The translations under genes and the position numbers were made by a program. The notes beneath the pieces were generated by a model that was given only the letters and a program-made list of their open reading frames with translations, was not told the DNA's origin and searched no databases. A stretch of DNA of 64,000 nucleotides. It comes from Candidatus Tayloriibacteriota bacterium. Its GTDB lineage: Bacteria > Patescibacteriota > Minisyncoccia > Phycocordibacterales > PALSA-1337. The DNA is taken from assembly GCA_943350765.1 (NCBI GenBank), contig CALRAJ010000001.1, positions 191,066 to 255,065 on the forward strand. Reading direction: 5' to 3'. This document shows, in pieces, positions 6,628 to 44,116 of this stretch. How positions within the stretch are numbered: position 1 is the first letter of the stretch; every line of letters starts with the position of its first letter.

Positions 6628-7986
6628 CTACTGTGTTTCTGGCAACCCAGCTGTCCTCTGCACCACTCGGAAAATCACGGCACCCAGTACCAAAACGGCT
6701 ATACCGAGCATTATCCAGATTATCCACGGCGCGCGCTCTGAAAGTGGTATTACTGGGGGTACATACTCACCATTTACCCGTTCTGCTTCGAGATTTCCGG
6801 AAATAAATTCATCGCTTTTAAAGTTACGGTATACCTGGGCCAAGTCGTATGATGGAAATACCGCCTTTTCATTACCATAGAAAAGTTTATAGTTATGCTG
6901 TGGCTCTGCTAAAAACTTTATTACCCTAACATATCCGCGGAATTCGAGGTCGTTAATTTTTATCGGCTGACTATCCTGATTATGAATAAGTATTTTTACA
7001 TAACGAGCATTTGACTCACCAAAGGAAACTAAAGTTTTTTCGCCAGATAAATCCTTTGTCTTATACTGATATATTGCATCCCCACCTATATAGCTCCAAA
7101 CTTTTTTATCTGCACTCGAATAAACAGAAACCGATCTTTCAAAATTTCTCGAATCAGTGCTTATAGCAAACTGATCGCTTATAGCACCCATATCTCCAAA
7201 ATCAGGGGAGATTCGTGGATGATTTGTTTTACCATCATCTAGTCTAAAGTCTGCGATTATCTGAGTATCTTTACCAACCTCCACTACCTCAAAAGTAGGA
7301 AAGTAAGAAAGACGATTACCTCTCGCATACACATCTCGCCTAGCACTAGCCCCGAGTACTAGGACAGGATCGCTATCAGAATCAATAATTTTTACCATAA
7401 CATATCGGTACACTGCCTCAGGATATGACACTGTAGTATTACGCACAGGGTAGTCTCGACTATAGTCGTAGATGATTTGATTGTCTGCGAGTAATGACCA
7501 TCTTCCCATGTCATTACTACCATATATCTGAACCTTCTTTCGATAGTTTTTCTGCTCAGCATCGATATTGATATTTATCTGATTATGTCGTGCTGAGCCA
7601 CCAAAATCTACAACAAAGCTAGTGTACTCACCCGCCACAGAACCCTTGTTTAAAATCTGTGTAGTCGGTGCTGTAGTCTGTACCGTGTCACGATCTGTAA
7701 TCAAAAGGTATGGGACTTCTTTATTATCACCTGCATCTACTACTCGCAGATCGCTCAGATGAGTGGTAGAAGAAGCAAATACTTGAGGATCAAGCACCAC
7801 TTGCACAAGTGAAGTCGACTGGGCTACGGACGGTATTTTTATCTCCTTATAAGCCCGCCAATCCTTTTGAGAAAAATCGGCAGACACTGTTGAGACCACT
7901 CCAAACAGAGCAGAAATCGTAATTACCAGTATTCTAGAAAAATTTGAGAAGTGTGTGTTCATGAGATAGTTATATTTTAACTGCAT
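6628..7986 (-). CDS. Secreted or membrane-anchored protein, DUF3999-like (partner of the downstream DUF2339-like membrane protein)
   Basis: N-terminal signal peptide and a C-terminal TM helix (WIIWIMLGIAVLVLGAVIF). Its start overlaps the stop of the upstream gene (ATGA at 7986). Family assignment rests on architecture and gene pairing and is tentative. Confidence 0.4.
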   Translation of the reverse strand: MQLKYNYLMNTHFSNFSRILVITISALFGVVSTVSADFSQKDWRAYKEIKIPSVAQSTSLVQVVLDPQVFASSTTHLSDLRVVDAGDNKEVPYLLITDRDTVQTTAPTTQILNKGSVAGEYTSFVVDFGGSARHNQININIDAEQKNYRKKVQIYGSNDMGRWSLLADNQIIYDYSRDYPVRNTTVSYPEAVYRYVMVKIIDSDSDPVLVLGASARRDVYARGNRLSYFPTFEVVEVGKDTQIIADFRLDDGKTNHPRISPDFGDMGAISDQFAISTDSRNFERSVSVYSSADKKVWSYIGGDAIYQYKTKDLSGEKTLVSFGESNARYVKILIHNQDSQPIKINDLEFRGYVRVIKFLAEPQHNYKLFYGNEKAVFPSYDLAQVYRNFKSDEFISGNLEAERVNGEYVPPVIPLSERAPWIIWIMLGIAVLVLGAVIFRVVQRTAGLPETQ

Positions 7987-9893
7987 TATTTCATTACAAC
8001 TGTTTCAGTATCCGACACGGTCAAGAAACCTTTAATTCGACTCGAAAATCGGAAATAAAGGTACCCAACCACAACAAGGGCAACTCCTAGCACCATAAAT
8101 GCTGCAATACGATAAACCTGATCTAGAAGCCAAATGTCATAAAGGAATGTCTTGAGTACCGTGATCCCAAAAACCACAGTCGCACAGATACGCAACACCG
8201 AGGTTTTTGAAATAATTCCAAGTACGAGTGCTACCAGTGCGTAGGCGATAAAGAATACTGATATTGCGAGGCTAGTAGATTGGATGATATTGGCAGTTGT
8301 CGAAAGATAACGGAAACCATCAACGATTTCAAAAACACCTGCACACAAAACAAGAATATTTGCTATCGCCATAAATACTGAGGCCTTGTGTAAATCCTCC
8401 CTATCCTTTGATGACACATAGAATGCGTGGAAAACATAAGCAATAAAGACGGCGAGGATTGTCGCTATTGCAAACACGATAAATCGCTCGTTGAATATGA
8501 GGATAAAATCTGCTTTTGCAAGGTTTGTATCAAATGCAAATAGACGAAATATACCGAGAGCAAAAATAGGGATCGAGTATGAGACTATTCTCGAACGAAG
8601 CAAGAGTGCCACCCATGCGATAATAGCACTTTCCACAAACCACGAAATAGTGATCCAGAAACCATTGAACTGAATAGGGAAAACGAGAGTGAGGAATAGT
8701 ACCGCCATTCCTGCTGGCAAATAGACGAGGGCTTTTGTCTCTCTTTTTGCATACGAGCCGACGAGCGTAATGAGTGTGTAGACCGCCGTTAGAAAAAGTG
8801 GCAAAAGACCTATGTAGGCAGAGTACTCAGGGTTTAGAATAGAATAGCTTACTGACATATAGATTATTCCTGTCAGCAACATTAAAGCAAAGTCGCCATT
8901 GTTTGGCTTTTTATCATTAAAATAATAGAAGACCAATGACGAACCAGTAAATATCGCCCAAAGTAGTGTAAAGTAGGCTTCGGTCATGAATAGCTTACTC
9001 GTGTCATAATTTCCAAAAAACCACCCTCCTACGAGTAGCAAGGTACCCACCGCTGTACCCCAGACCAGCTGTTTCCAATTTTTAAAGTAAGCAAGCACAA
9101 AAAGTCCCAGATCAAGTAGTGCAACATAAGTCAGAAGTCCAATATCATTTACCACATTTGTCGAAAGTAGGACGGGTGTTAAAAAACCACCGAGAAGTGC
9201 TATACCAGCTATTGCAATAGAGTCATATCTAACCGAAAGTACGATAGAGAAAATAGTGATAATAATCATTCCAAGAAAAGCCGGTACCTGATCGATTTTA
9301 TGATAAAAACCAAAAGCACTATAGAGAGATAGGTAGAGGATCGCGATACCGCCACCCGTCAAGTAAAATGCGTACTTTGGATATTTTCTATAGAACCATT
9401 CTCCCGCACCAATAAAGCCGAGACCGATAATCAAGCCGAGAATAATACGCCCTGTCTCGCCGATGAGGTTGTTATCAAAAGAGAACTTGATGAAAAATCC
9501 AACGCCAAAAAGTATCGCGATTATACCTGCCAACATGAGCCACCTTGTATTAAAAGCAAACTCCGTAGCAGTCGCAGTAGTATTGACAGAGGTTTTTACA
9601 CTACTGTATGTAGGTGAAGCCTGAGGTATGCTTTTAGTTGGGATATTTACTGTGTCAGTCTGATAGTGATGTGTATCCTGAGATGTTTCAGTATGCGAGG
9701 TCTGGATAGGGCTACTGTTAGTAGGAGTACTTGAACCGTAAAGCTCATCTTTTGTAATAATGCCTTTCTGGATGAGAAGTGAGGCGAGACGGTAAGATAT
9801 TTGGCTAGGTTTTTCTGCAATATTCTGATGCTGATTTTTTGAAACAAAATACCATGCGACACAGATAATTATGATAATGAATATTAATTCCAT
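7986..9893 (-). CDS. Large polytopic membrane protein, DUF2339-like
   Basis: 635 aa. An S/T-rich N-terminal region is followed by more than 12 predicted TM helices. It is operonic with the signal-peptide protein at 6628-7986. Confidence 0.45.
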   Translation of the reverse strand: MELIFIIIIICVAWYFVSKNQHQNIAEKPSQISYRLASLLIQKGIITKDELYGSSTPTNSSPIQTSHTETSQDTHHYQTDTVNIPTKSIPQASPTYSSVKTSVNTTATATEFAFNTRWLMLAGIIAILFGVGFFIKFSFDNNLIGETGRIILGLIIGLGFIGAGEWFYRKYPKYAFYLTGGGIAILYLSLYSAFGFYHKIDQVPAFLGMIIITIFSIVLSVRYDSIAIAGIALLGGFLTPVLLSTNVVNDIGLLTYVALLDLGLFVLAYFKNWKQLVWGTAVGTLLLVGGWFFGNYDTSKLFMTEAYFTLLWAIFTGSSLVFYYFNDKKPNNGDFALMLLTGIIYMSVSYSILNPEYSAYIGLLPLFLTAVYTLITLVGSYAKRETKALVYLPAGMAVLFLTLVFPIQFNGFWITISWFVESAIIAWVALLLRSRIVSYSIPIFALGIFRLFAFDTNLAKADFILIFNERFIVFAIATILAVFIAYVFHAFYVSSKDREDLHKASVFMAIANILVLCAGVFEIVDGFRYLSTTANIIQSTSLAISVFFIAYALVALVLGIISKTSVLRICATVVFGITVLKTFLYDIWLLDQVYRIAAFMVLGVALVVVGYLYFRFSSRIKGFLTVSDTETVVMK

Positions 9894-10100
9894 AAATAGT
9901 ATTACTTAGCGTGATTAACGCTGGCTATTATTATTGATATGTCTATGAGTATACTGTATCTTGGGGGATTTAAGAAGTATGGCTAAAGGGTTATGAACAA
10001 TGAAAACGCCAGCAACAACCATATACGCCATTGCGTATATAAGGGAAATACATCTCAGCTATAGCTGAAATGTATTTCTTGTCTAGTGTCAAAATCAATG

Positions 10101-21534: not shown

Positions 21535-23916
21535 CTACTTCTTTATCTGCAAAAGCATCTTTGCTACTACATCATATAGTGCATCTATCGCTGAAGCACT
21601 CTGACCTGTTGCCGGAGCGACGACTTTTACATAGCCGTTCACAACCTTCCAGCCTGCGCTGTTGTAACACTGGATACCAATGGTTTTAAGACCTGCGGTC
21701 ATAGTAGCTGGGATAGTGATGGTCTGAGAAGCGTTTAAGGGCTTGGTGCCATACCACTGTGAGTCAAATGAGCCACCTGTCAATCTCCCGTTTTCAATCA
21801 CCTCTCGAGCAGTACATCTATCAGCACCGACTGATGTCCAGTTTAGTTCCATATTTGATCCAGCAGTTAATGTCTGAACACCCGCACCAAAAGGACTGGT
21901 AGAAAGAGCCTGACCATTGACTGATAAGGTGATGACTGGGGTCAGTACTGGTTTTGCTTCAAAGGCTACTACTGATGACGCCACCTCTGCACCTGGTGCA
22001 TTACGGCATTTAATACCCATAGTCACTATACCTGAGACAGTTGTAGGTAAAGCGAATGATTCGCTACCAGAGAGACCCTTGTTACCTGTCCATGTCGCGA
22101 TACGAGGGTTAGAAAACGCTTCACAACTTGCAACATTACTTGCTGACCATTTTAATTCTGCGGATGAGCCTTGGGTGACTATTATTGATCGTAAGTCATT
22201 AGTGTAGCCTCCGTAGGAGAATGTGGCGGAGGGGGCTGTATCTACTAAACCAGATGTTAATACAGTAACATATCCCTCCAACACTCCAAATATATTTTGA
22301 TTATCAGAATTTATTACATATAACTTTGCATATCCTGTTGGAAAATTTGATGGAATAGTAACAGACACATCATTGCTTCCATCTACAATACCAGACATCG
22401 TAGATGTATTATAGATACTGTTTACAGCCTCAATTGCAGAACTCAATCTAACAATAATATTTCTAACATTATTGTTACTATTAAACCTAATACTGTATGT
22501 TCTACCTTGAGTAACCTGACTACCAGAGACTGAACGAACATCCGTAATTGACTGAGTATTCGCCACCACCCTTACATACCCATTGACCACCCTCCACTCT
22601 GGAGAAGTGGCTGAGGAATTGATACACTGTATACCAATAGACTTCACACCTGGTGTCATGGTAGCTGGTACGGTGATGGTTTGGCTACCACTACCGATAG
22701 TCTTACTTCCATACCACTGTCCGTCAAAGTCTCCACCAGTCAGTCTACCTGTAGCACCATCAATCACCTTTCGAGCTTCACAGCTAGTAGCATCTGTTGA
22801 TGTCCATGAGAGGGACATAGGCTGACCAGCTACTACTGTAGCAAGACCTGCACCAAAAGGAGTGAGGGCGATGGGAGTGTTGTTGAGGGAGAGGGAGACG
22901 GTGGGGGTAAGAGTGGTACAACCAGGAAAAGTCTCTGACAGACCATTGATATAACGAAGGATTGAAACACCATCCACCACACCGACACTACCGTTTTTAT
23001 CTACATCTCCACGATTTTTTAATTCATCTGTACCAGTAAATCTACCTGACATTATTACATTAAATGCATCATAATCACCCTGACCGATTCTTCCATCATT
23101 ATTTATGTCTCCGAGAGTACCACAGGCTAGATTTCTACCTGGATCTACGACAACTGTACCCCTAGCATCTCTCCAAGTCTGAGCTGTAACAGAGGCACTG
23201 CTGTATGTCTCACCGTTTTGATATATATACCTAGCAATACGAACCTCTGGAGTATCACCGAGAGGTGTAGAATATAGAACCCATTCAGCAAGATTAATTG
23301 CAAGATTGTGGTCTGTATCGGCAGGATGAAAAATACTTATTCCTAAAATTGCTCTAACATCAAAACTCAACTGATTACTAATACTATTTGGATTTGGAGT
23401 ATTTGCTACAGCAATCGTGTAGTTGCCAACATTTGAGGCTGGACCATTCGTACAAACGCTATTGTAGTTACGACAAAGTGTAGTAAATGTAGAAGGCATG
23501 ATAAAGGAAATCGTTGTTGGAGTAATAGTCATACTATTATTTGAATAATAGTCTCCACCGATTATCAACTTACTTCTATTTATACTACTTAAATTTGTAA
23601 AACCCTGTCCTCTAATCGTCATCATTTCACCTTGGTATACGGGACTCGTAACCGATGTAATAACAGGAGCGGTAGGATTTACCGTGGCCGCCACCCTAGC
23701 TCCAGCTGGAGTAGCCTGAGCTGGAGGAGGAGTAACACTGCCACTCTCTGCCGCTATCAACGCATTTAGCTGAGCAATCAGAGATACCAAAAGAGCTCGC
23801 ATTTCGGTAATGGTCATTGTAGGAGAAACCGTTTGAGCGGAGACTGACTGTATACCGACTACAGTAGTAAAAGAGAACACTAGGGCAATAATAATCAAAC
23901 TAAGGGTCTTTTTCAT
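21535..23916 (-). CDS. Large secreted or cell-surface protein with duplicated Ig-like modules and dockerin/EF-hand-like Ca-binding repeats
   Basis: Signal peptide (MKKTLSLIIIALVFSFTTVVGIQSVSA). Two internal repeats of about 110 aa (…LTGGDFDGQWYGSKT…IGIQC.NS…VVNGYV.VV). Motifs DINNDGRIGQGD and GDVDKNGSVGVVDG are dockerin-like. Confidence 0.55.
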   Translation of the reverse strand: MKKTLSLIIIALVFSFTTVVGIQSVSAQTVSPTMTITEMRALLVSLIAQLNALIAAESGSVTPPPAQATPAGARVAATVNPTAPVITSVTSPVYQGEMMTIRGQGFTNLSSINRSKLIIGGDYYSNNSMTITPTTISFIMPSTFTTLCRNYNSVCTNGPASNVGNYTIAVANTPNPNSISNQLSFDVRAILGISIFHPADTDHNLAINLAEWVLYSTPLGDTPEVRIARYIYQNGETYSSASVTAQTWRDARGTVVVDPGRNLACGTLGDINNDGRIGQGDYDAFNVIMSGRFTGTDELKNRGDVDKNGSVGVVDGVSILRYINGLSETFPGCTTLTPTVSLSLNNTPIALTPFGAGLATVVAGQPMSLSWTSTDATSCEARKVIDGATGRLTGGDFDGQWYGSKTIGSGSQTITVPATMTPGVKSIGIQCINSSATSPEWRVVNGYVRVVANTQSITDVRSVSGSQVTQGRTYSIRFNSNNNVRNIIVRLSSAIEAVNSIYNTSTMSGIVDGSNDVSVTIPSNFPTGYAKLYVINSDNQNIFGVLEGYVTVLTSGLVDTAPSATFSYGGYTNDLRSIIVTQGSSAELKWSASNVASCEAFSNPRIATWTGNKGLSGSESFALPTTVSGIVTMGIKCRNAPGAEVASSVVAFEAKPVLTPVITLSVNGQALSTSPFGAGVQTLTAGSNMELNWTSVGADRCTAREVIENGRLTGGSFDSQWYGTKPLNASQTITIPATMTAGLKTIGIQCYNSAGWKVVNGYVKVVAPATGQSASAIDALYDVVAKMLLQIKK

Positions 23917-24109
23917 TGATTTGATGAAATATGGCTTAAATAATAATAAATGGGTACTAACTGCTATTATAGCCCACCCCAAGTGGTTTTGCACAATGTG
24001 GGTGGGGATAAGTCTTTGATGGCTCAGTGGTTTGTAGTCGATGGCTCACTGCTTTTATAGCTAGACCCGTGAATAGACCAGTGAGCCGTTGAGGGCTTTT
24101 GAGCTTGAA

Positions 24110-33789: not shown

Positions 33790-35850
33790 TTATATATCTA
33801 TCGTCGCCTTTGTAGCATTGGACTGAATAAACGCTTTTCTAGCAGGTACATCAGTTCCCATAAGCATATCAAACACCTTATCTGCCTCAAATGCATCTCC
33901 GATAGAAACTTGTTTTAGTACTCTTTTTTCTGGATCCATTGTGGTCTCCTTTAGCTCCTCGGCATTCATTTCTCCGAGACCCTTGTATCGCTGAATATGA
34001 ATCTTGCTAGCCTTTTTATTTTTAGGATCAAAAAGATCATCCACAGGAGTATCCTCATCCGACTCATCACTTGCCTCAGAAATAGCAATGTCTTTGCCGA
34101 GTGCCTTTGTTTTTTCCTCATCTGAATAAAAATAAAGTATCTCCTTGCCACGCTTGACCTTGTAAAGTGGAGGCTGAGCAATATAAATAAATCCACCTTC
34201 TATCAGAGGCTTGAAATATCTATAGAGTAGGGTCAAAATCAGGGTACGGATATGGGCACCGTCTACATCGGCATCGGTGGCGATAATTATTTTATGATAA
34301 CGAAGCTTGGTAATATCAAAAGTATCTCCGATCGCGGTACCCATCGCTACTACTAGATTTTTGATTTGCTCTGAGCCCAGCATACGGTCGAGTCTAGCTC
34401 TTTCGATATTTAGAATCTTGCCTCGGAGTGGGAGTACCGCCTGAGTACGACGATCACGCCCTGTCTTTGCGGTACCACCTGCGGAGTCTCCCTCTACAAT
34501 AAATATCTCTGACTCGCTAGCGTCCTTGCTCTGGCAGTCTGCTAGCTTACCTGGCAAGGTCATACCTTCGAGAGCACCTTTTCGAAGCACGGAGTCCTTT
34601 GCAGCTTTTGCGGCCTTACGCGCTTTGAGTGCGAGAATAGACTTTTGAATAATTGCTCGAGCGTCATCTGGATTCTCCTCCATAAACATAGCAAAGGCTT
34701 CTCCAAAAACAGTCGCCACGGCTCCCTGTGCCTCTACACTACCGAGCTTTGCTTTGGTCTGACCTTCAAACTGTATCTCGCGAAGCTTTACAGACACTAC
34801 CGCAGTGAGACCCTCAAGCACATCATCTCCGGTAAAGTTGTCCTCGCTATCTTTTACCATCGTATTTTTACGAGCGTAGTTATTTATCGTCCTCGTGAGT
34901 GCAGTCTTGAACCCGGTCATGTGTGTACCACCTTCGCTGTTGTAGATATTGTTTGCAAAAGCGAGCAGTCTAGGTGAGATATCGTCCACATACTGAAGTG
35001 CGACTTCTACGGACTCTACCCCCTCAACCTTCTTTTCAATATAGAAAATATTTTTGTGGATCGGCTTCTGGAATTGATTATTGAACTTTACCAAAGAAAT
35101 AAGTCCTCCCTCAAAATAAAATGTCTGGGATGGGGCGTCGATACCCAAATCACGGAAATAAAAAACATCAGCCATGTCTATTTTATCCGGACATTCTCTT
35201 GCATCTATCACAGATATACGAAGACCTTTGACAAGGTAAGCCTGCTGACGCATGTGGTTTGCAACACGAGCAAAATCAAAAATTACACCTTCTTTAAAAA
35301 TATCTTTGTCTGGCTCAAAACAAACGATAGTACCATGGAGCTTACTCGAATCTATTTTCTTTACCGCAGATTTCTTTTTACCCTGACTATATTCCTGCAT
35401 ATACACACCACCATCTCGGTGGACTGTAACCTGACAGAAGATAGAGAGAGCATTGACCACCGAAGCACCCACACCGTGGAGACCTCCAGAGACTTTGTAT
35501 CCCTCACCTCCAAACTTACCTCCAGCATGAAGCACGGTCATAACAGTCTCGAGTGCCGAAACTTTGGTCTTTGAATGTGTATCGACTGGAATACCTCGGC
35601 CATTGTCTACTACACGAACGCGATTTTCTGGAAGAAGTGTGATTTCTATATCATTACAAAAACCACCCATCGCTTCGTCGCGAGAGTTATCAAATATTTC
35701 GGTGATAAGGTGATGTAGTCCGTCTGGTCCAGTCGTACCGATATACATACCGGGACGCTTTCTTACAGGATCAAGACCTTCAAGCACAGTGATTTCATCA
35801 GCACCATACGAACCCTTTTTTACATCTTTTTCATCGCTATTTTTTGCCAT
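33790..35850 (-). CDS. gyrB: DNA gyrase subunit B (type IIA topoisomerase ATPase subunit)
   Basis: The GHKL ATPase motifs (…ITEIFDNSRDEA…VVDNGRGIP…GLHGVGASVVNALS), the transducer, and TOPRIM (…IVEGDSAGG…) are all present. Confidence 0.8.
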   Translation of the reverse strand: MAKNSDEKDVKKGSYGADEITVLEGLDPVRKRPGMYIGTTGPDGLHHLITEIFDNSRDEAMGGFCNDIEITLLPENRVRVVDNGRGIPVDTHSKTKVSALETVMTVLHAGGKFGGEGYKVSGGLHGVGASVVNALSIFCQVTVHRDGGVYMQEYSQGKKKSAVKKIDSSKLHGTIVCFEPDKDIFKEGVIFDFARVANHMRQQAYLVKGLRISVIDARECPDKIDMADVFYFRDLGIDAPSQTFYFEGGLISLVKFNNQFQKPIHKNIFYIEKKVEGVESVEVALQYVDDISPRLLAFANNIYNSEGGTHMTGFKTALTRTINNYARKNTMVKDSEDNFTGDDVLEGLTAVVSVKLREIQFEGQTKAKLGSVEAQGAVATVFGEAFAMFMEENPDDARAIIQKSILALKARKAAKAAKDSVLRKGALEGMTLPGKLADCQSKDASESEIFIVEGDSAGGTAKTGRDRRTQAVLPLRGKILNIERARLDRMLGSEQIKNLVVAMGTAIGDTFDITKLRYHKIIIATDADVDGAHIRTLILTLLYRYFKPLIEGGFIYIAQPPLYKVKRGKEILYFYSDEEKTKALGKDIAISEASDESDEDTPVDDLFDPKNKKASKIHIQRYKGLGEMNAEELKETTMDPEKRVLKQVSIGDAFEADKVFDMLMGTDVPARKAFIQSNATKATIDI

Positions 35851-36353: not shown

Positions 36354-37526
36354 ATGAAAACAGAAAAAAAACACGCTGATTCTGGTCTATCTAGGACAAT
36401 ATTTACCGTCCCTATTACTGAACAGGTCAAACTTTTAAAAGCCTTGGATGGACGACAAGATGCCGAGGCTCTCCGCATAAAACGCTATCTAGCTATGGCA
36501 GACCTTTCTCGCACCAAAGGTAACCCACTTTCTGAAATCAGCGAACGAGTAACAAACCTCCCTGTACTCAAAAACTTTGACCACATAGAGATACCTGAGG
36601 TTATTCCTACCAAAATTCTCTTTGACCTCTTCAACTTCGCTCCAGACCACCCTGCTCGAAGCACCTCCGACACCTACTATGTCGATCCAAAAAATGTCCT
36701 CCGTACGCACGACACCGTGATGTGGTATTACTACTTCCAGCTCGAGGAAATAAAAAAGAAAATCGCTGAGGGTAAAGAGCTCGGTGTGATGTGCTACGGT
36801 AAAGTCTACCGCAAAGACGAAATCGACCGACATCACATGAACATCTTTCATCAGATGGGCGGACTGTATCTCGTGCCAGATAGTCAGAAAATGCTTACCA
36901 TCGAAGATTTGAAAACAGTACTCTCAGGCGTAGTGCAAAGTGTGTTCGGCAAAGACATCAAATATCGCTTCAACCCAGACACCTTCCCCTACACCGATCC
37001 ATCTCTCGAGGTAGAGGTAGAGATCAAAGGCGAATGGATTGAGATCCTAGGCGGTGGTATGCCACGAAAGAGTGTGCTCAAGGATTTCGGCGTCGAGGGC
37101 TACAATGGCTGGGCCTTCGGCTTTGGTCTCGAGCGTCTCGCCATCATCAGTATGCAGCTGCCAGACATCCGCCTTCTCTGGTCTGAGGATGAGCGTGTAA
37201 AAAAGCAACTCAAGCTTGGAAATAAATTTGTCGAAATCAGTAAATACCCACCTATCGTCCGCGACATTTCTTTTGTGGTAAAGAATGATTTTATTCCAAA
37301 CGACTATTTTGACACCGTAAGGGAGACCGCTCCGGGACTTGTCGAGGAAGTTGAGCTTTTGGATAAATACGAGAATGCTAAAAAGTTTGGCGAGGGTAAC
37401 CTCAGCTACGCCTTCCGCATCACCTACCGATCACTTGACCGAACTCTCACTTCAGCTGAAATTGATACGATTCATAAAAGTCTTGAGGATGTGACTAAAA
37501 AGGCGTTTAGGGCGGTGGTGAGGTAA
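36354..37526 (+). CDS. pheS: Phenylalanyl-tRNA synthetase alpha-type catalytic subunit fused to a C-terminal FDX-ACB anticodon-binding domain (monomeric, mitochondrial-FARS2-like architecture)
   Basis: Class II PheS core (FNFAPDHPARSTSDTYY..., GWAFGFGLERLAIISMQLPDIRLL). This is followed by SKYPPIVRDISFVV...NDYFDTVRETAPGLVEEVELLDKYENAKKFGEGNLSYAFRITYRSLDRTLTSAEIDTIHKSLED. That tail aligns with the FDX-ACB domain found at the C-terminus of mitochondrial PheRS and PheT. Confidence 0.8.
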   Translation: MKTEKKHADSGLSRTIFTVPITEQVKLLKALDGRQDAEALRIKRYLAMADLSRTKGNPLSEISERVTNLPVLKNFDHIEIPEVIPTKILFDLFNFAPDHPARSTSDTYYVDPKNVLRTHDTVMWYYYFQLEEIKKKIAEGKELGVMCYGKVYRKDEIDRHHMNIFHQMGGLYLVPDSQKMLTIEDLKTVLSGVVQSVFGKDIKYRFNPDTFPYTDPSLEVEVEIKGEWIEILGGGMPRKSVLKDFGVEGYNGWAFGFGLERLAIISMQLPDIRLLWSEDERVKKQLKLGNKFVEISKYPPIVRDISFVVKNDFIPNDYFDTVRETAPGLVEEVELLDKYENAKKFGEGNLSYAFRITYRSLDRTLTSAEIDTIHKSLEDVTKKAFRAVVR

Positions 37527-38448: not shown

Positions 38449-38736
38449 CTAATTCCCCATTCGTTTTAACTTTCTATAGACATCATCGTCATTTCTTTTT
38501 CCTATCAAAGTCATATACAAAAACTCTTTAGACCAGCGGTAAACGATTCGGTACTCACCGATATCAGCGCGGTAATATTCTTTGTATCCGCGCAAAATAC
38601 TTGCATCCGATGCTTTCGGATTTTCAGCGAGTTTAAAAATCTTTTCGGCTATTTGCCGACACTGCTTCGGTGGCAATTTTTTAAGAAACTTCTCAGAGAC
38701 TCTTGAGAGATTAATCTCGAGCATGGAGAGCTTCAT
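38449..38736 (-). CDS. RelE/ParE-family type II toxin
   Basis: 95 aa. ...YRADIGEYRIVYRWSKEFLYMTLIGKRNDDDVY is a RelE/ParE-like C-terminal pattern. It overlaps the upstream antitoxin gene by 26 nt. Confidence 0.65.
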   Translation of the reverse strand: MKLSMLEINLSRVSEKFLKKLPPKQCRQIAEKIFKLAENPKASDASILRGYKEYYRADIGEYRIVYRWSKEFLYMTLIGKRNDDDVYRKLKRMGN

Positions 38737-38989
38737 TTAAAAGCTTGCGACTTTTAGCCACTCCAATATAGCCCTTTTTATGTGCGCGAGTAGAGAGCTC
38801 GCCCCAATACGCGTCTCGACGAGCCTCAAATTCATTGTACTCATCCATAGACATAACTACCGCCACCTGTCGGCCATTTTTCAGGACGGCCACAGGAGAT
38901 AGTCGTGCCTCTTCTAAAAGCCGTCCGAAATTATTCTTCGCTTCTTTTGCAGTAAAGATTGATGTGATCATGGTAGCTATTATAGCCAA
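38711..38989 (-). CDS. Phd/YefM-family antitoxin
   Basis: 92 aa. TAKEAKNNFGRLLEEARLSPVAVLKNGRQVAVVMSMDEYNEF is the classic Phd/YefM N-terminus. Confidence 0.7.
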   Translation of the reverse strand: MAIIATMITSIFTAKEAKNNFGRLLEEARLSPVAVLKNGRQVAVVMSMDEYNEFEARRDAYWGELSTRAHKKGYIGVAKSRKLLNEALHARD

Positions 38990-40553: not shown

Positions 40554-41846
40554 TTAAGGTTTCTTATCGAGAAGCCATTTCCAGAGTGGTTTGAATTGTA
40601 TAGTCTTCCCGTCTTTTTTCACTTCTCGTTCCTCGTCCCATGTGAGTATGGTAAGCGTGTCTACATTTAATTCACCGCTTGCTTCAAATAGGGCTCTTGT
40701 TTCTCTCTGCTCGACATCTGAATTTATTGACTCATAGCAAACTTGTATCAGTTCGGTTACCACATGTCCTTGCTTGAGTACAAAATCGACTTCGCGTTCA
40801 TTACGAGTCTTATAATAGAACAATTCTCTATTTGGTTTAGCTCCACGCTTGACCAATTCAGTAAAGACCAAGTTTTCCATTAGTTTGCCTTTATCAGGAG
40901 AGTGTTGTACTGCTTTGGCAATTATAAAACCGTTATCAACAGCATAAACCTTTCGGGGAGATTTTATACGTTCCATTGATTTTGGAGAGTATCGTAGTAG
41001 AGAAAAGACTAGATACGCTTCCTCAAGATAATTTATATATTTCTCTATGGTTGTAGTGCTCTTTAAATTCAAAGCCTCCATCAGTTTTCTAACTGTATAT
41101 AAACTAGAAAAATTGTTTATCAGATGATTGGCTAGATTGCTTACCTGAGTTGAGAATTTAACTCTATGTCTTTTGACCACATCCTTGAAAAGTACTGCAT
41201 CAAGAAGAACATCAAGATAGTCTTTGGGGTCGACATTGCTTACCGCCACCTCGGGAAATCCACCGTTGAGCAGATAGTTCTCCGTAAGATTCAGAAGCTC
41301 GCCTCGTTGTCGTGGCAAAGAAGAGTATTCCTGATTTATTTGAAATTTTTTTGATCGAAGAAATTCATTGAAATCAAACGGTAGTATTTCTATGGGCATA
41401 TGTCTGCCAGTAAGGTGTGTAGCAAGTTCTTTCGAAAGCAATTGTGCGTTGGACCCAGTGAGTACCAAATTGTATCCGCCTCGGTGCAGACGATTTGCAA
41501 ATAACTCCCAACTTGGCAAGTTTTGAATCTCGTCAAATAAAATGGTTTTTACATCACTGCCATAAGTGGCGTGCAGTTCTTTCATTAGTTCATCCGTAGA
41601 TATGCCCCCCACACTCGACAATACTTCATCATCGAAATTGAAGTACATAAACGGACGGTCTTTCAAAAGTACGAGCGAAAATATTGATTTTCCAGCTCGT
41701 CTGGGACCGAGAACTACTTTTATCAAACTAGAATCCAGCCATTTTTTAGCAAATGGTTCTTTGGTTCGATCTATATAAGCAAGAGCTAAAAGCTCCTCTT
41801 TTTGTAGTTTTTGACCAGAAACTATATCTTTTAGGTTATTTTGCAT
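40554..41846 (-). CDS. AAA-family ATPase with a C-terminal DUF4143-like region
   Basis: Walker A (GPRRAGKS) and Walker B (ILFDEIQ). Length is about 430 aa, and the architecture is typical of the AAA_14/DUF4143 proteins. Confidence 0.6.
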   Translation of the reverse strand: MQNNLKDIVSGQKLQKEELLALAYIDRTKEPFAKKWLDSSLIKVVLGPRRAGKSIFSLVLLKDRPFMYFNFDDEVLSSVGGISTDELMKELHATYGSDVKTILFDEIQNLPSWELFANRLHRGGYNLVLTGSNAQLLSKELATHLTGRHMPIEILPFDFNEFLRSKKFQINQEYSSLPRQRGELLNLTENYLLNGGFPEVAVSNVDPKDYLDVLLDAVLFKDVVKRHRVKFSTQVSNLANHLINNFSSLYTVRKLMEALNLKSTTTIEKYINYLEEAYLVFSLLRYSPKSMERIKSPRKVYAVDNGFIIAKAVQHSPDKGKLMENLVFTELVKRGAKPNRELFYYKTRNEREVDFVLKQGHVVTELIQVCYESINSDVEQRETRALFEASGELNVDTLTILTWDEEREVKKDGKTIQFKPLWKWLLDKKP

Positions 41847-41962: not shown

Positions 41963-44116
41963 ATGATTTCTATCACCGAACAACATCTTGAGTTATTTAT
42001 ATCGCTGTTCCGAGGAAGAACGGATGTGTATGCGCGTCGGTGGGAAAAAGAAGGTCGGTCTGGATACAGCCCAGCATATGAATTTAATTGGGATGAGTTC
42101 ATGACACATAAGCGACGTGGTGGCTCGATGAAAGATTTTGAAAATAAGAGACTGATACCGCTGACTCGAGATGTTATTAGAAAACATCTTATTGGTCAGC
42201 ATGTGATTGGCATATATCCTATCCTGCCCGAAAACACATCGTACTTTATTGCGGCTGATTTTGATGGTGAAAATTGGTTGAACGATAGTAAGAATTTTCT
42301 TGTAGTTTGTGTAGAAGCAGGATTATCGGCATATCTTGAACAATCGCGCTCTGGAAATGGCGGTCATGTTTGGATTTTCTTTTCCGAAGCATATCCATGC
42401 TATAAAAGTCGGCAAGTTGCACTTGAACTTATTCGTAAGGCCTTTGATGTTTCTGAATTTGAAAAAGATGTTAGCTTTGATCGTTTATTCCCAAATCAAG
42501 ACACCTTGAGCAAAGCTGGTTTTGGTAATCTTATTGCTCTCCCCCTTCAAGGAAAATCGGTGGAAAATAGCAATGCTGTTTTTATTGATCCAGAGACAGC
42601 AAAACCATTTCCTGATCAATGGCAGTTTCTTGCTGATATCAAAAGACACACTGTTACTGAATTGGATTCAATACACCAAGAAATCTTTGCAGACACTGGA
42701 AAGCCAGTGTTAAAAACACGATCTGATAATGTATTAGAAATTTTTGTAAGTAATCAAATCAATTTAAGAAGAGCAGAACTTACTCCTACACTCATTCATT
42801 TTCTCAAAGCGGAACTCAATTTTCTTAATACTGAATATCTAACTAAACTAAGGTTGGGAAAATCAGTCTATGGTGTAGAAAAATACTTTAAATTGATTGA
42901 TGAAGAAGGTGACATCGTTTCCTTGCCTCGTGGGTTTTTACAAAAACTTGTCAACTTTCTCAAAGAAAATAATATCGCCTATAAAATACGATTTAATATC
43001 CCCTCTTTTGAGGAAACTCATTATAAAAGTCAAATAGAATTAAAGCCATCACAAATACCAATTATAGAGACAGCTACACAATCTGATCAAGGTGTAATTG
43101 TTGCTCCATCCGGCAGTGGCAAAACTATTATCGGCTTGGAACTCATGGCTCGTAAGCAATTACCAGCTCTTATTCTTGTCCATCGTAAGCAGTTACTAGA
43201 TCAATGGATTGAAAGAATACAGTCGTTTTTAGGAATTACAAAACTACATATTGGCCAATATTCGGGAACAAAGAAAAAGTTAGGCAAGCAGATAACCATC
43301 GGTTTATTGCAGAGCCTAGCTCGTAAAGGTGACGTGTCAGAATTTAGAGATAAATTTGGCACAATTATCGTAGACGAATGCCATCATATTCCAGCAGCTA
43401 CTTTTCGAAAAGTCATCGCACAACTCAATCCAAAATATATTTATGGCCTTACTGCTACACCAAAACGAAAACATAACGATGAAAAATTGATCTACGCCTA
43501 TATAGGCGAGATTATTGCTCACATGGAAGCTTTAGATACTACTCCGATTTCCAATCTCCCCTATCAATCACCAGAAATTTTAATCCGCACAACAAATTTG
43601 GCTGTACCCTTTAAGTTTTCTACTGACCATTTTCAACTCTTAGCTAAAGTCGTTTGTTTTGATACCACCAGAAATCAGATGATCATTGAGGATATTTTAA
43701 GTAAAGTTACTGATAACAAAAAATTGCTTGTGTTGAGCGAGCGTAAAGAGCATTTGGAAATTTTGGCTATGTACCTCAAAGGCAAATGCGAGACAATCGT
43801 TATTTCAGGAGATGATTCTGCTCCTAAAAGAAAATCGAAACTCAAACAGATTGAGTCCGGACATTATCAAGTCATTTTTTCCACGGGCCAGTTTTTTGGC
43901 GAAGGTCTGGATATTAGAAGTATTTCTTGTCTCATCTTGGCGTTTCCGTTTTCGTTTGAAGGTAAACTTGTTCAATATATGGGGCGTCTCCGAGATATCG
44001 GGGTTCAGAAAATAATCATTGACTATCGAGATACACAGATTCCATTTTTGGAGAAACAGTTCAAACAACGCGAACGATATTATAAAAAGCTTAAAGCTCA
44101 GATAAAATTTGCTTAA
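41963..44116 (+). CDS. Primase-polymerase (PrimPol/AEP) N-terminal domain fused to an SF2 DExH-box helicase
   Basis: N-terminal domain has IGIYPI...YFIAADFDGE (DxD) and SRSGNGGHVWIFF (sGxGxH), the hallmarks of bifunctional Prim-Pol. C-terminal domain has Walker A VIVAPSGSGKT, DECH box IIVDECHH, motif III LTATP and helicase-C motifs (FSTGQFFGEGLDI, QYMGRLRD). Confidence 0.65.
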   Translation: MISITEQHLELFISLFRGRTDVYARRWEKEGRSGYSPAYEFNWDEFMTHKRRGGSMKDFENKRLIPLTRDVIRKHLIGQHVIGIYPILPENTSYFIAADFDGENWLNDSKNFLVVCVEAGLSAYLEQSRSGNGGHVWIFFSEAYPCYKSRQVALELIRKAFDVSEFEKDVSFDRLFPNQDTLSKAGFGNLIALPLQGKSVENSNAVFIDPETAKPFPDQWQFLADIKRHTVTELDSIHQEIFADTGKPVLKTRSDNVLEIFVSNQINLRRAELTPTLIHFLKAELNFLNTEYLTKLRLGKSVYGVEKYFKLIDEEGDIVSLPRGFLQKLVNFLKENNIAYKIRFNIPSFEETHYKSQIELKPSQIPIIETATQSDQGVIVAPSGSGKTIIGLELMARKQLPALILVHRKQLLDQWIERIQSFLGITKLHIGQYSGTKKKLGKQITIGLLQSLARKGDVSEFRDKFGTIIVDECHHIPAATFRKVIAQLNPKYIYGLTATPKRKHNDEKLIYAYIGEIIAHMEALDTTPISNLPYQSPEILIRTTNLAVPFKFSTDHFQLLAKVVCFDTTRNQMIIEDILSKVTDNKKLLVLSERKEHLEILAMYLKGKCETIVISGDDSAPKRKSKLKQIESGHYQVIFSTGQFFGEGLDIRSISCLILAFPFSFEGKLVQYMGRLRDIGVQKIIIDYRDTQIPFLEKQFKQRERYYKKLKAQIKFA

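Follow-up and report, generated by a model that had tools for sequence, protein, structure and literature searches.

Which enzyme charges tRNA-Phe in a bacterium whose phenylalanyl-tRNA synthetase (PheRS) catalytic gene carries its own anticodon-binding domain, and what became of the usual two-gene pheS-pheT system at that locus? The question was raised by a 64,000-nucleotide stretch of a Candidatus Tayloriibacteriota bacterium (contig CALRAJ010000001.1, positions 191,066 to 255,065), the whole 64 kb of which is referred to here as the window. The gene under study is the open reading frame (ORF) of the fused PheRS within it. A review (PMC3275996) describes PheRS as a heterotetramer conserved throughout the known prokaryotes and names the mitochondrial enzyme as the sole monomeric synthetase built on a class II core. 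We consider it very likely that the fused gene encodes a single-chain PheRS of the mitochondrial (PheRS-M) design, which displaced pheST in place. It is probably the sole PheRS of the cell.

Domain architecture and predicted structure

A preliminary description, made by reading the sequence, had proposed that a PheS-type core and an FDX-ACB domain lie on one chain. This was confirmed. The ORF occupied exactly 36354..37526, and Pfam placed PF01409 at residues 51-285 and PF03147 at residues 296-390. The C-terminal part had been assigned to FDX-ACB by eye, and PF03147 was indeed matched over its full length (all 94 model positions, 1-94), at E 2.2e-21 and with 76.6 bits, where the cutoff is 31.1. 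The features of the gene are as follows.

36354..37526, + strand: single-chain PheRS gene, complete (390 aa and stop codon), identified by an ORF with ATG start, its domains and the model
36354..36503, + strand: N-terminal region, aa 1-50; no Pfam match before residue 51
36504..37208, + strand: class IIc catalytic core, aa 51-285; PF01409 tRNA-synt_2d, E 4.7e-54, 183.9 bits
36702..36725, + strand: loop R117-T-H-D120-T-V-M-W124; putative relocated carboxylate D120, Trp124 in place of the usual Gln
36795..36866, + strand: motif 2, aa 148-171, YGKVYRKDEIDRHHMNIFHQMGGL; Gly169 at the position of Glu or Asp in other PheRS
36984..37004, + strand: FPYTDPS, aa 211-217; aromatic wall of the Phe pocket
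37107..37139, + strand: motif 3, aa 252-262, GWAFGFGLERL; includes pocket residues Ala254 and Arg261
37161..37238, + strand: junction and linker, aa 270-295, PDIRLLWSEDERVKKQL...; signature found throughout the fused-type PheRS, the human mitochondrial enzyme among them
37239..37523, + strand: FDX-ACB (ferredoxin-fold) anticodon-binding domain, aa 296-390; PF03147

No PheS-type coiled-coil domain (PF02912) was detected by Pfam in the N-terminal region. In the AlphaFold2 model, which was built from 20 family members (predicted local distance difference test score, pLDDT, 87.9; predicted template modelling score, pTM, 0.83), residues 1-8 of this region were disordered and were followed by helices at 22-31 and 37-47, the block having a pLDDT of 80-90. 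By sequence, the top solved relative, at E about 1e-55, was human mitochondrial PheRS (3cmq/5mgu). This alignment continued across the junction between the domains (LPDIRLLWSEDERVKKQ in the window, IPDIRLFWCEDERFLKQ in human) and included all of the C-terminal domain. Among the solved structures, bacterial PheS chains were matched at E 1e-36 or weaker, and the core alone was covered. Foldseek superposed the model on the closed human enzyme (5mgv/3cmq) with a template modelling (TM) score of 0.76 and a root-mean-square deviation of 3.3-3.5 A over 384-389 columns. The TM score was 0.55 against the open tRNA-bound form (3tup) and about 0.5 against PheS chains. The C-terminal domain also matched the C-terminus of PheT (TIGR00472 positions 691-798), and it was 33-38% identical to the FDX-ACB domain of Paceibacteria PheT. 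An identical protein was present on 7 public contigs from metagenome-assembled genomes (MAGs) of Patescibacteria (GCA_964952345.1, GCA_943354485.1 and others).

Search for pheT and a second pheS

The preliminary description had also stated that no pheT is adjacent in the window, and our searches agreed with it. Six-frame tblastn of the window with E. coli PheS and PheT detected no pheT and no second pheS. Two Paceibacteria PheS/PheT pairs used as tblastn queries found nothing in the window beyond the fused gene, and the Paceibacteria PheT probes detected no B3/B4-type sequence there. Pfam scans of 20 ORFs of the window, including the neighbours of the fused gene, yielded no pheT or second pheS either, nor did the 10 kb past the right end of the window. 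An 819-aa ORF at 21535-23994 (- strand) was considered as a pheT candidate and rejected, as Pfam matched nothing in it at E 0.001 or better and tblastn gave no match either.

To extend the comparison, GTDB species representatives were scanned for the fused gene. It was found in at least 520 of them, nearly all Parcubacteria/Paceibacteria, and the best 80 of the at least 520 loci (1.22 Mb) were surveyed in detail. The expectation that such an enzyme is rare in bacteria stands for bacteria generally and fails inside this group, where at least 520 species-level genomes carry it. Homologues numbered in the thousands, with 68-90% identity among those listed. Homologues of 69-89% identity were abundant in Parcubacteria/Paceibacterota MAGs, and all had the same two domains. 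In all 80 loci the fused gene was single-copy. The 1.22 Mb of flanking sequence contained no match to the N-terminal part (B3/B4-B5) of Paceibacteria PheT and no second pheS. With the E. coli PheT probe, the sole match in the 80 loci was a gene for a B2-like oligonucleotide-binding (OB) fold protein, found in two of them.

Contigs were matched by their lengths across the fused-gene, pheT and gyrB result sets, pheT being found by a profile search with Paceibacteria PheT. Fused-gene contigs (191) and pheT contigs (119) had none in common. Among the former, 22 were at least 100 kb long and seven measured 450-830 kb. Five contigs held both the fused gene and gyrB, and six held pheT and gyrB. The reverse situation was seen in PMX_810_sub, a complete 866-gene Paceibacterales bin with canonical pheS and pheT: its table has exactly one PF01409 and one PF03147 entry, and therefore no fused gene (PMC10936435 Table S2). 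Nothing relevant was found in the supplements of PMC9530719 and PMC12239599.

Position of the fused gene beside gyrB

The gene next to the fused gene served as a positional anchor.

33790..35850, - strand: gyrB, divergent from the fused gene and upstream of it; Pfam HATPase_c, DNA_gyraseB, Toprim and DNA_gyraseB_C

In 58 of the 80 loci gyrB was located 53-3420 bp from the fused gene (median 193 bp), and it was near the fused gene in 39 of the 46 loci that had at least 4.5 kb on both sides. The two genes were divergent, as in the window, in 46 loci. In 12 loci the fused gene was followed by gyrB on one strand, which is the order and strand of pheST. Canonical neighbourhoods were retrieved with the window GyrB, to which the GyrB of the relatives was 78-81% identical. 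In a Kaiserbacteria MAG, a Taylorbacteria MAG and Parcubacteria GW2011_GWA1_40_21, pheS-pheT lay directly upstream of gyrB. The same pheS-pheT-gyrB arrangement was found in L092, a lineage reached through the PheT search, and is reported for bin PMX.50 (PMC9763046), so that canonical pheS-pheT stands beside gyrB in five related lineages altogether. Across 55 genomes the mean identity was 68.2% for the fused PheRS and 71.7% for GyrB (r = 0.62). Taken together, the gyrB slot, the flanks, the contig comparison, PMX_810_sub and the GyrB-level conservation argue for displacement of pheST in place.

The two-subunit enzyme of the group is already reduced. Canonical Parcubacteria PheS was short (235-327 aa; L009 5888-6688, L010 5376-6359 and the Taylorbacteria locus), and the PF02912 coiled coil was not found by Pfam in the two PheS that were scanned (L009, L010). 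PheT of the relatives retrieved as gyrB neighbours had B3_4, B5, CLM and FDX-ACB domains and no B2. PheT without B2 in the candidate phyla radiation was noted by Mukai et al.

Dozens of GTDB representatives labelled 'uncultured Candidatus Saccharibacteria bacterium' (among them L015, L021, L024 and L091) had a Parcubacteria-type fused PheRS. It adjoined a Parcubacteria-like gyrB, and the labels look generic and not taxonomic.

A stand-alone OB-fold tRNA-binding gene (PF01588, PheT B2-like) directly preceded the fused gene, in the same orientation, in L048 (9560-9970, +) and L081 (about 9632-9970, +), and in both gyrB follows the fused gene. The L048 protein has 136 aa, and its gene ends 19 bp upstream of the fused PheRS. 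Both proteins shared 35-37% identity with the E. coli PheT B2 domain. They could be a PheT relic or a tRNA-binding helper acting in trans. As a general partner of the fused PheRS the gene was rejected: it occurred in 2 of the 80 loci, both from divergent lineages, and had no match in the window.

Amino acid binding site

Ligand contacts of M. tuberculosis PheS were taken from PMC8136816 and mapped onto the fused PheRS, and invariance was judged in a 20-member family alignment. The following contacts were invariant (M. tuberculosis residue, then residue of the fused PheRS): Arg201, R153; Asp203, D155; His209, H161; Phe213, F165; His214, H166; Gln215, Q167; Phe255, F211; Phe257, Y213; Thr258, T214; Ala305, A254; Glu311, E260; and Arg312, R261. 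The counterparts of F211 and Y213 in T. thermophilus are Phe258 and Phe260 (PMC3275996).

The exception among the mapped contacts was Glu217, whose position is occupied by Gly169. In M. tuberculosis this Glu217 (human Glu159) holds the amino group of the substrate through a water molecule and is hydrogen-bonded to Ser177 and Gln180 (PMC8136816). The loop R117-W124 contains the equivalents of M. tuberculosis His175, Ser177 and Gln180 (PMC8136816), the last of which is human Gln124 (PMC3275996). In the fused PheRS the Gln180 position is Trp124, and position 120, beside the Ser177 equivalent, is Asp. The conserved pocket set (human Gln124, Glu159 and the Phe-x-Phe pair) is replaced by W124, G169 and F211/Y213.

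Positions 120 and 169 varied together. Among 120 close family members, 119 had D120/G169 and one, P0004, had G120/D169; P0004 is the nearest relative of the window protein (bootstrap 96). In a species-level set of 81 sequences, the pattern at positions 120/124/169/213 was DWGY in 69, TWDY in 6, DWDY in 2, CWDY in 2, GWDY in 1 and NWDY in 1. G169 occurred solely with D120 (69/69), there were two intermediates with both D120 and D169, and none of the 81 sequences lacked both acids. The fact that one acid was always kept indicates a compensatory change and a site under selection, which argues for a working amino acid site. From the alignments, loss of the motif-2 carboxylate at Gly169 is apparently compensated by Asp120, and a plausible order of events is traceable in the Parcubacteria clade: T/D to D/D to D/G, with one reversal to G/D.

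In the human enzyme, the hydroxyl of a misbound meta-tyrosine is bound by two groups, Gln124 and Glu159 (PMC3275996). We hypothesize that the loss of these groups could sharpen discrimination in an enzyme devoid of editing.

Phylogeny and viral homologues

The catalytic core shared 28-30% identity with Paceibacteria PheS, compared with 34% for E. coli PheS and 37-58% for other fused proteins. A search of 1.84 billion cluster representatives returned 208 clusters at E 1e-30 or better, and nearly all of the top 150 had the C-terminal domain and a PDIRLFW-type junction. In the rooted tree all fused proteins formed one clade (bootstrap 100/100) with Paceibacteria PheS outside. Two groups were resolved within it. 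Group A (96/100) contained the mitochondrial enzymes of S. osmophilus (Msf1), Salpingoeca and Vitrella. In group B (94/100) were the window clade (100/100), P0121 as the nearest outgroup of that clade, and further proteins, one of them from an Oligoflexia MAG. When this phylogeny was run, the window clade did not join the eukaryotic mitochondrial enzymes, to which the preliminary description had likened it; it fell in group B, sister to group A. On this tree the fused PheRS is a bacterial sister lineage and does not appear nested inside eukaryotic sequences.

Single-chain PheRS of 336-403 aa was also encoded on 45 IMG/VR contigs (L094-L138). The carriers were huge phages and giant-virus MAGs, many of the contigs being 200-536 kb and one 1.47 Mb. 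P0148, a short group A form, was located on a jumbo-phage-like Logan contig of 160 kb (L093). All 44 viral copies analysed belonged to group A, had the patterns TQEF or MLDF and were 32-40% identical to the window protein. Phages were considered as the immediate donor of the window clade and rejected, since every one of these 44 copies was a group A member.

Comparison with known enzymes

The mitochondrial PheRS (human FARS2, yeast Msf1; TIGR00469; 3CMQ, 3TUP) has the same order of N-terminal region, core, linker and FDX-ACB domain as the fused PheRS. The junction motif and the ATP and motif-3 residues are common to both, Thr is present at the pocket floor in both (T214, human Thr235), neither has an editing domain, and the whole chains superpose when the predicted model of the fused PheRS is used. 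The fused PheRS differs in being encoded on a bacterial chromosome, probably as the cell's sole PheRS, in falling under the TIGR00469 cutoff and within the separate group B, and in having about 10 extra residues inserted after the HxT loop. Trp124 replaces human Gln124, Gly169 (with Asp120) replaces Glu159, and Tyr213 replaces the second pocket Phe. A human insertion that splits the alignment into two blocks is missing from the fused PheRS.

Canonical (alpha-beta)2 PheRS, including that of Paceibacteria L009, L010 and L092, has a homologous core and FDX-ACB domain, occupies the same gyrB slot and presumably catalyzes the same reaction. In contrast to its chains of about 235-330 aa and 625-790 aa, the fused enzyme is one chain of 390 aa without the B1, B3/B4 (editing), B5 and catalytic-like domains and without the PheS coiled coil, and core identity between the two types is just 28-34%. 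The viral single-chain PheRS of huge phages and giant-virus MAGs in IMG/VR has the same two domains and junction in a similarly compact form, whereas its membership of group A and its low identity set it apart from the group B window protein. SrmL (NF051887) was the best NCBIfam model by E-value, with a match over model positions 34-342 of 349, which takes in the core and the greater part of the C-terminal domain, whereas the score was far under the curated cutoff of 300, which none of 20 sampled relatives reached. No paper on SrmL was found in a full-text literature search.

Alternative explanations

Several observations weigh against a single-chain PheRS that displaced pheST in place. The fused PheRS scored below the cutoffs of the curated families, with 225.3 bits for TIGR00469 (pheS_mito; cutoff 258.35), 167.2 bits for TIGR00468 (pheS; cutoff 237.45) and 226.7 bits for NF051887. 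TIGR00469 was just passed by P0121 at 264.3 and was passed by the group A members tested (260-331), and for PF01409 the true Paceibacteria PheS scored 303-345 bits against 184 for the fused PheRS. The mitochondrial-type label of the preliminary description thus fits the architecture and the full-length fold match, and it does not extend to the curated mitochondrial family or to the position on the tree, where the bacterial sister clade is distinct. Two contact residues of the substrate region are changed (Glu to Gly169 and Gln to Trp124), so altered specificity is possible on sequence alone. The tree was a neighbour-joining tree of 215 core columns and not a maximum likelihood tree. The gyrB slot is not universal, because L011 (a 752 kb contig) has neither PheRS type within 10 kb of gyrB. 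The names Kaiserbacteria and Taylorbacteria occur on both fused and canonical genomes, which means that there was more than one event or that the names are unreliable. Finally, absence of pheT from the rest of the fused-gene genomes is inferred and not observed, and some doubt about displacement persists for this reason.

One rival idea is that the protein is an accessory PheS-like ligase, comparable with SrmL, which has another substrate or role and coexists with pheS-pheT elsewhere in the genome. The rank of SrmL among the NCBIfam models and the replacement of two pocket residues by Gly169 and Trp124 are in its favour. So is the same architecture in bacteria expected to have pheST, such as the Oligoflexia MAG, and no complete genome with the fused gene was covered by the analysis. 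However, the SrmL cutoff was missed by the fused PheRS and by all 20 sampled relatives. The fused gene fills the pheST slot of its relatives, no pheT was found in the flanks (1.2 Mb), fused-gene and pheT contigs are disjoint even though seven of the former reach 450-830 kb, and conservation is on a par with that of GyrB. One carboxylate is always kept, implying selection on the amino acid site, and genomes as reduced as these, whose closed chromosomes measure about 0.8 Mb, would be unlikely to retain a redundant synthetase. We therefore regard an accessory ligase as improbable. An origin independent of the mitochondrial enzyme, in which a deletion joined the resident pheS to the 3' end of pheT (B8 domain), appears less credible still and is very improbable. 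The genes pheS and pheT do adjoin at the same locus in relatives, and the C-terminal domain has 33-38% identity to Paceibacteria PheT FDX-ACB. The core, however, is nearer to E. coli PheS and to other fused proteins than to Paceibacteria PheS, which the 100/100 clade of fused proteins excludes; the core identities and the tree thus contradict a local pheS-pheT fusion. In addition, the junction motif PDIRLxW...DER..KQ is common to the human enzyme, and in most genomes the gene is inverted with respect to the pheST orientation.

It is also conceivable, though unlikely, that the fused protein is the PheRS of the cell and does not act as a lone monomer, being a dimer or requiring an OB-fold or free editing helper in trans. 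Class II synthetases are normally dimers, and the B2-like tRNA_bind gene stands upstream of the fused gene in L048 and L081. Against this, that gene was confined to 2 of the 80 loci with no match in the window, and the window had no B3/B4-type sequence. The model reproduces the closed monomeric arrangement of the human enzyme, and the nearest solved homologue is a functional monomer (PMC3275996).

Proposed mechanism and implications

A single-chain PheRS encoded by the fused gene would consist of a class IIc core, a conserved linker and an anticodon-binding domain of ferredoxin fold; it would have neither a beta subunit nor a B3/B4 editing domain. The core would make Phe-AMP and pass Phe to tRNA-Phe, and the C-terminal domain would read the GAA anticodon. 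Binding of tRNA may swing the closed form to the open form, as in the human enzyme. Mischarged Tyr-tRNA-Phe and meta-Tyr-tRNA-Phe would stay unedited. The gene would be a group B gene, sister to the mitochondrial and viral group A, that replaced pheST in situ. In the Parcubacteria clade, the motif-2 carboxylate (Glu elsewhere, Asp in basal members) was probably lost only after Asp120 had arisen.

A wider scheme would join these elements, and we put it forward as a possibility about which we are doubtful. Single-chain PheRS would be an old bacterial/viral type. Its group A would have been captured by mitochondria, some algal plastids, huge phages and giant viruses. Group B would have displaced pheS-pheT across much of Parcubacteria, with a rebuilt pocket (Trp124; the carboxylate moved from 169 to 120) that removes the binders of the meta-tyrosine hydroxyl and so substitutes for proofreading.

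In a full-text literature search, no paper was found that describes a single-chain PheRS from a bacterium or a virus. PheRS-M or PheRS subunits are mentioned in the AARS Online paper, in Douglas et al. 2023 and in Meheust et al. 2019, but a bacterial single-chain PheRS is not. Relative to known PheRS-M, the novelty of the fused PheRS is best described as its bacterial host, its separate clade, the in-place displacement of pheST and the relocated active-site carboxylate. At least 520 bacterial species-level genomes appear to translate with a single-chain, editing-free PheRS, which contradicts the statements of PMC3275996 on prokaryotes and on monomeric synthetases.

For the origin of mitochondrial PheRS, a bacterial sister group provides a rooted comparison. 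The locus would also be a case in which an essential two-gene enzyme was replaced at the same site by a distant relative, with a traceable compensatory change in the active site. A bacterial PheRS of 390 aa without editing would be a natural system in which to test fidelity when proofreading is missing, and its compact size would make it a candidate for engineering.

There is a consequence for annotation as well. Several homologues of the fused PheRS are named 'hypothetical protein' by NCBI because the family scores below every equivalog cutoff, and genomes with the fused PheRS therefore appear to have no PheRS. Completeness estimates and phylogenomics use marker sets that include pheS and pheT models. 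Genomes with the fused PheRS would fail these marker models.

Other features of the window and of related loci

Downstream of the fused gene in the window were genes for an S-adenosylmethionine (SAM) methyltransferase, a ParE/Phd pair and mnmA. LeuRS, an aminoacyl-tRNA synthetase of class II, dnaG and rpoC were encoded farther off. The window contained no tRNA genes and no Rfam matches, and a promoter/terminator scan found fewer sites than in shuffled sequence.

In many Paceibacteria PheT, an NlpC/P60 domain (PF00877, C40 peptidase) was inserted between B3_4 and B5, as in L092 (10001-12373) and about 30 further clusters of 779-806 aa. These PheT occupy the normal pheS-pheT-gyrB slot, and their NCBI names include 'PheT-related protein' and 'C40 family peptidase'. 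In L092 a C39-type peptidase gene follows PheT. The gyrB of L048 (11244-14669, +), from a Doudnabacteria MAG, encodes 1141 aa compared with about 690 aa elsewhere. From its size and look, the extra segment of about 450 aa within the Toprim region would be an intein with a homing endonuclease.

The following side features were recorded in the window.

38449-38989, - strand: type II toxin-antitoxin, in which a ParE-like toxin gene (95 aa) overlaps that of a Phd/YefM antitoxin (92 aa); located between the methyltransferase gene and mnmA
40554-41846, - strand: AAA_14/DUF4143 ATPase, adjoining the primase-helicase gene
41963-44116, + strand: TOTE-type archaeo-eukaryotic primase domain fused to a ResIII/DEAD helicase (PF22548, E 1.5e-82)
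6628-9893, - strand: DUF3999 protein with a discoidin (F5/8 type C) domain, adjoining a DUF2339 membrane protein

The primase-helicase and the AAA_14/DUF4143 ATPase, a few kb from the PheRS gene, are probably a conflict or defence module. The DUF3999-discoidin and DUF2339 genes look like a conserved pair of unknown function.

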